From positions 1 through 64,000 of the forward strand of contig JBBSVN010000012.1 in the NCBI GenBank assembly GCA_038046765.1: a stretch of DNA of 64,000 nucleotides. Direction: 5' to 3'. Source of the stretch: Candidatus Micrarchaeota archaeon (GTDB taxonomy: Archaea > Micrarchaeota > Micrarchaeia > Anstonellales > Bilamarchaeaceae). Below the pieces are notes generated by a model. It saw only the letters and a list, made by a program, of their open reading frames with translations, did no database searches and had not been told where the DNA came from. Of this stretch, positions 10,834 through 52,554 are shown one piece after another. The translations under genes and the position numbers were made by a program. Every line of letters starts with the position of its first letter. The first letter of the stretch is position 1.

Positions 10834-10893
10834 ATGATGACATGAACAACCTCTGAGGGGCCTAACTCCTGTGAAGATGTCAACAGCGTCTGA
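10834..10893 (+). ncRNA. box C/D guide sRNA; D' guide predicted for 23S Um2552 (E. coli numbering)
   Basis: C ATGATGA 10834-40, 12-nt guide CATGAACAACCT, D' CTGA 10853-56, short hairpin, C' GTGAAGA 10871-77, 12-nt guide TGTCAACAGCGT, D CTGA 10890-93. Confidence 0.85.
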
Positions 10894-34415: not shown

Positions 34416-34469
34416 TAATTAATATACTATTAATGTAATAATTTATAAGCGATGATGTTAAAGGTATTT

Positions 34470-34627
34470 GGCCCACTTATGGCCGCAAGAGGATCAACTG
34501 AGCTAACCTTAACTATTTATTCTTAGGTAGGTTGCCGGGCTAGTCTAACATTTGCTTCTAGACGCCCTTGTGGATGCAGATTTAACTAATAATATATATT
34601 TCAATCTGCATCAGAAATTTTGGCTAC
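34470..34627 (+). ncRNA. structured ncRNA with element antisense to the 16S rRNA 5' end
   Basis: TTTATAAG about 25 nt upstream; several hairpins; AGGATCAACTG at 34490-34500. Confidence 0.55.
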
Positions 34628-52057: not shown

Positions 52058-52278
52058 CGTTTTTCACCTAATTTATTTTTTAGTAACCTAAACTTTTGTA
52101 AATCGTTTTCGATTATTTCGAAAGAAAAACTTTTTTCACTACATTCTCGTAGATACGATTAACACTAATATTATTATCGACGCAAGCGAAAATCGCTTAC
52201 GAGCAAGTGTAAGTTTGAAGTTTGCGAGATTTGTTTTCTAGTAACAAATAAAATAACAAGTGTATATAAATTTATTAG

Positions 52279-52401
52279 ATGATGACCAAGGTGATCGCTG
52301 AGCCAAGCCCTAAGCTAGTGCTTGATTTCGTGTCAAACGAGATTGAGACAGGAGTAATCCGGCCACGGCCCCATGGCAGTGAAGATTGACGTGCGGTCTG
52401 A
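52279..52401 (+). ncRNA. long box C/D RNA; D guide predicted for 16S Cm1402; 77-nt structured insert
   Basis: C ATGATGA 52279-85, guide CCAAGGTGATCG, D' CTGA 52298-301, insert, C' GTGAAGA 52379-85, guide TTGACGTGCGGT, D CTGA 52398-401. Confidence 0.85.
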
Positions 52402-52419
52402 TAATATTTTTGTTTCGAG

Positions 52420-52506
52420 TTTTGGGTCTAGTGTCTCGACGAAAAAGGTAGCGAGTTCTGTGTCCTGTGCGGGTAGTGACGAAAATAATCACTTGCAGAC
52501 CCAAAA
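52420..52506. ncRNA. putative multibranch structured RNA element
   Basis: 10-bp closing stem TTTTGGGTCT/AGACCCAAAA; internal hairpins, two carrying GACGAAAA. Confidence 0.45.
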
Positions 52507-52554
52507 GTTAAGTGTCATAAGTTTTAGAGTCTAATAATTTTATTGTGCCTTAAA

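Follow-up and report, generated by a model that had tools for sequence, protein, structure and literature searches.

A box C/D sRNA of Micrarchaeota with predicted guides for C1402 and C1533 of 16S rRNA, weak guide duplexes and a conserved accessory insert

In eukaryotes, 2'-O-methylation at the equivalent of C1402 of 16S rRNA is guided by a snoRNA, and the h44-h45 end of the small-subunit rRNA is served by the structured C/D RNAs U13/snR45 and SNORD43/snR70, of which U13/snR45 bring in Nat10. Archaeal C/D sRNAs, which have been described as minimal and fast-changing in target, are given as 50-70 nt (PMC4644070, PMC7994747); the sRNA described here has 123 nt, and its pair of 16S targets is kept across much of a phylum. 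The closest described system is sR13 of Nanoarchaeum equitans, a single C/D sRNA with two guides that joins h44 (Am1408) to the anti-SD region (Am1534), and that was proposed to set the timing of 3'-end folding and to substitute for RsmA, in a text that describes no accessory domain for it (PMC5389701). Our sRNA likewise addresses h44 and the anti-SD region with the two guides of one RNA, but the nucleotides at issue are C1402 and C1533. The sR13 report also gives Cm1533 in I. hospitalis and Cm1402 in N. equitans, each without a guide. Guides for Cm1402 are represented by Iho sR11 (PMC5389701) and, among the pattern-selected matches listed, by RNAs of ~50 nt in Thermoproteota, Aenigmatarchaeota, Undinarchaeota and Thermoplasmata; these too place the +5 position of the D guide on C1402, but they have G at guide position 6, other second guides and no insert. 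Pairs of targets that are more than 100 nt apart and near each other in the folded subunit are described for Neq sR15 and sR17 (PMC4644070, PMC7994747), at other sites than the two considered here, which are 120 nt apart. The coupling of h44 to the anti-SD region thus has a precedent in sR13, and what is new is, above all, the insert, together with the kept weakness of the pairing. The searched literature gave no description of this RNA family or of sRNAs from Micrarchaeota; supplementary sRNA tables and receptor drawings could include comparable long sRNAs or variant receptors.

The window, the whole 64,000-nt stretch of Micrarchaeota DNA that was analysed (from a genome referred to below as G000), carries the element at 52279-52401, flanked by an MscL gene and a DUF1801/Imm5-like gene that both lie on the minus strand. 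Canonical boxes C, D', C' and D follow each other there in order, near consensus and with canonical spacing. Read on the plus strand, the element consists of box C (52279..52285, conserved in homolog alignments), a 12-nt D' guide (52286..52297, its core invariant in alignments), box D' (52298..52301), an insert of 77 nt (52302-52378), box C' (52379..52385), a 12-nt D guide (52386..52397) and box D (52398..52401). The boxes, the guides and the length of the insert are as drawn in the earlier note made from the DNA letters, which had also seen, correctly, that the box pattern is that of a second RNA at 10834. The strict four-box pattern occurs at these two places in the 1.5-Mb genome and in none of 30 shuffles of the window; because of this rarity the C/D RNA at 52279-52401 cannot be put down to chance. 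It is a real box C/D RNA, single-copy in G000 and unannotated; no Rfam family reached its gathering threshold, the best being sR14 with 11.2 bits against 38 (E 1.1). A TATA-like element at 52246..52253 on the plus strand, assigned to this copy from the flanks of homologs, is a candidate for the RNA's own promoter, with another AT-rich candidate at 52263-52270. In the 70 flanks of homologs that are long enough, TATA-like words are most frequent 29-34 nt upstream of box C, and from these positions the RNA is probably a transcript of its own.

For 16S positions we use what we take to be the E. coli numbering, which agrees with that of PMC5389701. The D guide pairs at 11 of its 12 positions with 1398-1409 of the cognate 16S rRNA, leaving U at guide position 6 opposite C1403 and placing +5 exactly on C1402, as the earlier note had predicted. 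Its other prediction, that the D' guide is antisense to the 3' end of 16S rRNA, is borne out by eight contiguous base pairs between guide positions 2-9 and 1530-1537, with +5 on C1533. The two +5 targets are nucleotides G000:C3:977 and 1097, and both form G-C pairs with the guides. Matches of 11 of 12 and of eight contiguous pairs fall below the usual prediction rule of at least nine contiguous Watson-Crick pairs. The sRNA fits the single-mismatch relaxation for double guides as it stands in the text of PMC4644070, while the relaxed rule in that of PMC6009581 does not apply in the strict sense, since the two 16S sites are more than 100 nt apart. A search for rivals of these targets found no perfect genomic match to either guide outside the RNA's own gene and nothing better in the cognate 23S rRNA or in 12 predicted tRNAs; the unweighted top scores of the D' guide (8.5 and 8.0) are chance-level tRNA matches. 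The 16S gene of G000 is partly assembled (model positions 497-1467, with nt 1-496 missing), and for that reason a better target within nt 1-496 is excluded only in relatives. An additional GATCAC, which may lie upstream of the 16S gene, is present in one of the 30 16S loci.

Guides and cognate 16S rRNAs could be compared in 44 of the 52 genomes tried (seven RNAs and one 16S were unparsed), two of the 44 (G044 and G096) having another D' guide. Guide-16S covariation in these aligned pairs supports the D target: guide position 9 is G in 10/10 pairs with C1406 and A in 34/34 with U1406, which perhaps reflects one event, and position 3 is A in five of the seven pairs with U1400 (G:U in the other two) and never with C1400. 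Covariation at position 7 is unclean, with A in 9/9 pairs with U1404 but also in seven with C1404. The normally fixed stretch 1398-1409 is changed (U1400, U1404, C1406) in families f13, f14 and f18 (L298-L319). All 44 share one D' target sequence, so the D' guide, whose core is conserved throughout, has no 16S covariation to offer. The earlier note had taken the mismatch in the D duplex to mean A at 1403, but the organism's own 16S has C there, as do 30/30 loci and 44/44 cognate 16S sequences (overlapping sets), and the U:C mismatch is consequently a kept feature. Its idea that the D' guide extends into the trailer fails as well, guide positions 10-12 being unpaired. Cognate pairing and covariation thus uphold a dual guide that joins the decoding strand of h44 to the 16S 3' end, without A1403, the trailer or the insert fold proposed along with it. 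Cm1533 would be a plainer reading of the pairing at C1533 than masking or processing of the 3' end.

A perfect 10-bp core was found at neither guide in any of the 44 homologs. Internal mismatches of the D duplex are present in 33 of them, at position 6 (18), 7 (8), 5 (6) and, in the rest, 2 or 3. The +5 pair is Watson-Crick at D in 38/44, at D' in 35/44 and at one or both of them in 44/44; it has been lost at D in six genomes and at D' in seven family-type guides, and nowhere at both. In G000 the D core duplex is estimated at -13.0 kcal/mol, against -20.2 for a perfect guide (7.2 weaker), and the D' core duplex at -11.7 against -15.5 (3.8 weaker). Judged by its sequences, imperfect pairing is a trait of the family. 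In the hemi-complex assay described in the text of PMC1635284, mismatches at positions 3-5 lower activity and those further out do not, and since a mismatch at position 6 was thus tolerated, Cm1402 stays likely in this organism.

Homologs of the RNA were matched by DNA search in 27 of 61 genomes, and by a covariance model built from 19 long forms in 93 of 151 Micrarchaeota genomes and in 86 of the 99 genomes of its own family (f1), with one copy in each of the latter. Among the 90 of 93 phylum matches that were inspected, 63 come from outside that family, mostly with 48-70 nt and none with the CUAA/CAC motif described below. Homologs of 49-70 nt with the same guides occur, and the motif-bearing forms have 79-185 nt. 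The mismatched D guide together with this D' guide was found, among the GTDB matches listed, mostly in Micrarchaeota, including Anstonellales and Bilamarchaeaceae, about half of the at least 119 loci being chance bacterial matches; the pattern search of metagenomes covered short forms only. The homologs make up a natural series, bare at 49-60 nt, with the loop only at ~80 nt and with the loop plus two hairpins at ~123 nt, which suits tests of h44/h45 chaperoning and of the origin of accessory domains of the eukaryotic kind. Four 48-nt forms (L254, L260, L054 and L088) have the same mismatched D guide and a D' guide against 16S 1493-1499, which is the opposite strand of h44.

RNAalifold, applied to the 19 long forms, folds the insert into a stem that rises from the C'/D' k-turn, a CUAA/CAC internal loop, which the program finds unaided, and a three-way junction with hairpins P3 and P4. 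In this copy the closing stem of the k-turn pairs 52302..52305 with 52374-52377; the internal-loop domain has its 5' strand at 52307..52316 (unpaired CUAA at 52310-52313) and its 3' strand at 52361..52369 (unpaired CAC at 52364-52366); P3, of near-constant length, spans 52318..52349 with a GUCAA loop at 52332-52336, and the short P4, whose cap is variable, spans 52351..52360. Across the 19 sequences 92.5% of cells are paired, both partners vary in 15 of 20 pairs and the covariation score is 0.614, against 0.248 for shuffled alignments and at most 0.183 for slid partners, values that are favoured by scoring the fold on the alignment from which it was derived and that come from non-independent kin. 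The first two pairs of the closing stem are paired in 100% of the 19 sequences, one of them with compensatory change, and P3 has two-sided changes in 10/10 pairs. The minimum free energy fold of this single sequence prefers another arrangement, the conserved register costing 2.2 kcal/mol. The multibranch insert of the earlier note is right in its ATTTCGT/ACGAGAT stem, its GGA-GTAA-TCC hairpin and its closing stem, but it missed the internal loop at the conserved core, and the CAAGC/GCTTG helix that it proposed keeps all five pairs in one of 44 long forms and is absent from the minimum free energy fold.

The collection comprises 122 distinct RNAs. Inserts of at least 30 nt are present in 82 of them, of which 75 contain CUAAGC and GCCAC exactly and seven contain neither, with no near-misses; the seven are unrelated hairpins of 30-108 nt. 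The pair beside the CUAA/CAC loop is C-G in 63, U-A in 11 and unpaired in one of the 75, the next pair outward is C-G in 73 and U-G or G-C in one each, and the third is paired in 74. The distance from D' to the start of the loop is 8 or 9 nt in the 70 copies whose guide has 12 nt, and a hairpin loop of the form GUCA or GUCC follows 15-18 nt beyond the internal loop in 43 of 46 long forms. Pairing between the P3 loop and either the D guide of the RNA itself or the h44 strand that is displaced, assessed by eye, is inconsistent in GUCC forms and in those with five-nt loops. The ~80-nt forms keep the internal loop under a bare tetraloop, so that the partner of the motif is neither P3 nor P4. The motif does not extend beyond one family, and several lineages of that family lack it: of the 86 family copies, about 64 have it (two judged by score and length only) and about 22 do not, copies without it occurring inside genera g3, g7, g11 and g19. 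In a 16S tree of 34 rows, which has modest support, the two states are interleaved. This pattern would fit a motif that was already present in the ancestor of the family and was lost several times. Outside the sRNA, the short-gap form of the motif has two matches in 99 genomes, against ten for controls.

The internal loop resembles, at the level of its letters and pairs, the receptors of GNRA tetraloops, in that tandem C-G pairs (outer in 73/75, inner in 63/75) are followed by an asymmetric loop with a UAA strand. In the numbering of PMC10243134, the motif differs from the 11-nt receptor by the 2.1C insertion of the IC3/Vc2 path (given in the text of PMC11571812), by U7C and U9C and by one extra C. 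The text of PMC2275092 describes class II/IC3 receptors as CCC..GGG with an asymmetric loop, C7.34/R2 favouring GGAA. With the receptors 11ntR, IC3R and C7.34/R2 our motif shares the tandem C-G pairs, the inserted C, the UAA, the G and a short A-containing opposite strand, but it has an extra nucleotide in the 3' strand. It also departs from the receptor consensus in its length (13 nt against 11 or 12), in admitting U-A at 2-10 (11/75) and in its G-C pair at 6-7, where a non-Watson-Crick step is expected. A change from CC:GG to CU:AG is the switch that distinguishes receptors of GNAA from those of GNGA loops; h45 stays GGAA although the loop-adjacent pair switches to U-A. Two other motifs, UAA/GAN and the C-loop, were set aside, their registers differing from the one that covaries. 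No cognate tetraloop for the motif was identified, and the literature searched reports no such receptor in a C/D sRNA.

We consider it likely that the RNA is a dual-guide C/D sRNA for C1402 and C1533 in which weak duplexes are combined with an accessory insert that contacts an outside partner. G000 encodes fibrillarin, Nop5 and L7Ae, and the stand-alone sRNA would be expected to assemble with them. The sRNP would then bind the 3' minor domain of pre-16S rRNA at two places, 1398-1409 in the top strand of h44 and 1530-1537 at the GAUCACCU end, and would most likely 2'-O-methylate C1402 and C1533 in this organism. As the bound sRNA would keep the upper part of h44 open and cover the beginning of the anti-SD, it would also be a transient chaperone or timer; this chaperone side is supported by the sequences of lineages that keep the pairing and lose one +5 pair, and both duplexes are probably kept weak for release. 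The insert is probably an accessory domain, and an optional one, at the C'/D' k-turn. Given antiparallel pairing, nt 1529 would lie by D' and nt 1409-1410 by C', and we infer from this geometry that h45 and the body of h44 leave the complex where the insert projects. The CUAA/CAC loop would most likely be the surface touched by a partner that is not part of the sRNA, which might be a protein or else a loop or helix of rRNA, and such a contact could strengthen or time binding.

The identity of the partner is where the readings diverge. That the insert recruits a protein, be it a second modifying enzyme or a factor for assembly, in the manner of U13/snR45-type RNAs in acetylation, is a possibility that we hold to be rather unlikely. 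The all-or-none conservation of the two loops suits a protein site, and the motif's patchy presence within genera would suit a patchy partner gene, but the candidate proteins do not oblige. U13/snR45 bring in Nat10, whereas our sRNA has canonical +5 geometry at both boxes and the Nat10/TmcA helicase domain stayed below the cut-off in G000 (89.7% complete); RsmH, like RsmI, was not found in the five genomes tested, G000 among them; RsmB/F was rejected as a partner, nine motif-bearing genomes lacking it and eight motif-less genomes having it; and no gene is a conserved neighbour of the sRNA in 40 loci, where the largest cluster comprises six. If the partner were instead RNA, it might be the GGAA loop of h45, the site of KsgA, which is situated between the two guide sites; docking of the CUAA/CAC loop there, with the sRNP clamping h44, h45 and the 3' end and so gating KsgA and 3'-end maturation, is a reading we think unlikely. 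It would draw on the likeness to a variant 11-nt receptor, on the preference of some class II/IC3 receptors for GGAA (in the text of PMC2275092) and on the fixed distance of the loop from D'. Insertions in the h45 loop occur in four family genomes, all without the motif (4/17 motif-less against 0/47 motif-bearing genomes that have this part of the 16S), a correlation that is weak because the four, from three genera, are non-independent kin and their insertions look like introns and would probably be spliced. Against docking also stand the U-A pairs in 11/75 copies with an unchanged GGAA, the Watson-Crick pair at 6-7, which weakens the 11-nt receptor according to the text of PMC10243134, and the 13 motif-less genomes with intact h45. 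No 16S column follows the change from CC:GG to CU:AG (6 against up to 25 genomes), and the strands of the motif have no conserved antisense target in 16S or 23S rRNA. The wider proposal that the sRNP uses tertiary docking in addition to base pairing to find its substrate, with the insert as a natural receptor for the h45 GGAA or another pre-30S loop that sets the order of Cm1402, Cm1533, KsgA action and 3'-end trimming, strikes us as similarly unlikely. If docking were true, the RNA would give prokaryotes a counterpart to the specialised snoRNAs of eukaryotes, and a loop that binds GGAA would be a natural receptor of a class called rare in nature in the text of PMC2275092.

Two further readings deny part of the predicted function. 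In one, the mismatch beside the target blocks methylation, and the RNA is mainly a non-methylating chaperone at C1402 for which the pairing, perhaps with Cm1533, is what matters. The homologs lend this something, since six of the 44 mismatch at +5 itself and keep the other pairing and seven others lose the D' +5 pair, and conserved +5 mismatches in Pyrobaculum, for which pairing without methylation was argued to be a chaperone role, are described in the text of PMC6009581; but the G-C pairs at both +5 positions of this copy, the tolerance of position-6 mismatches in vitro (PMC1635284) and the failure to find a protein-only route to Cm1402 (RsmI, five genomes) make it, to our minds, a decidedly unlikely account. 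The other takes the insert for a neutral remnant, such as one left by a mobile element, that is tolerated in the C'/D' loop, as the seven unrelated hairpins evidently are; repeat-like hairpins beside some copies and the frequent absence of the motif point the same way. Conservation in the alignments makes such a remnant unlikely, and with eleven invariant letters between covarying flanks across the observed 16S distances, one copy per genome and matches outside the sRNA that stay below those of controls, we regard it as highly improbable. A substitute for RsmA, the role proposed for sR13, was rejected for this sRNA: KsgA is encoded at G000:C4:77509 (E 2e-52) and is full-length in 56 of 61 genomes, G000 included.

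The window contains other elements of C/D type, one of which, the 34470 element, the earlier note had joined with this RNA in a small-subunit maturation system. The 60-nt C/D sRNA at 10834-10893 is a large-subunit guide and not a small-subunit one, to judge from its pairing: its D' guide forms 10 bp with the organism's own 23S rRNA, with +5 on what is presumably the equivalent of U2552, and its D guide pairs, with one mismatch, ~48 nt upstream in the 23S, at what we take to be the equivalent of U2504. The element at 34450-34501 (the 34470 element of the note) is C/D-like, and its C box is weak. In relatives, the 5' end of 16S, a part that is missing from G000, is complementary to the 8 nt that precede the CUGA of the element, whose 5' part is similar to sense 16S around 910-922. 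In 60 relatives it has two weak partial matches only. With one RNA pointing at 23S and the other so poorly matched, the proposed system finds no support.

Several features of the surrounding DNA and of the 16S genes might be of use to others. Intron-like insertions at ~1494, at 1501 and within the h45 loop occur in the 16S of L169, L374, L375, L376 and L377. In the window, a 30-nt stretch upstream of the sRNA gene (52174-52203) is repeated exactly at G000:C8:57330-57359, and a GT-rich tract 3' of box D (52410-52510), unrepeated in G000, is common to L008, L009, L010, L011, L274 and L282-L284. In one relative the 3' part of the sRNA gene is present again ~1.4 kb downstream (L011:3030-3050). Upstream of the gene in L276 (209-266), L277 (181-240), L274, L128, L118 and L057 are hairpins with a short inner stem, around which the arms reproduce box C together with the D' guide and its complement, and these look like small insertions that duplicate the 5' end of the gene.
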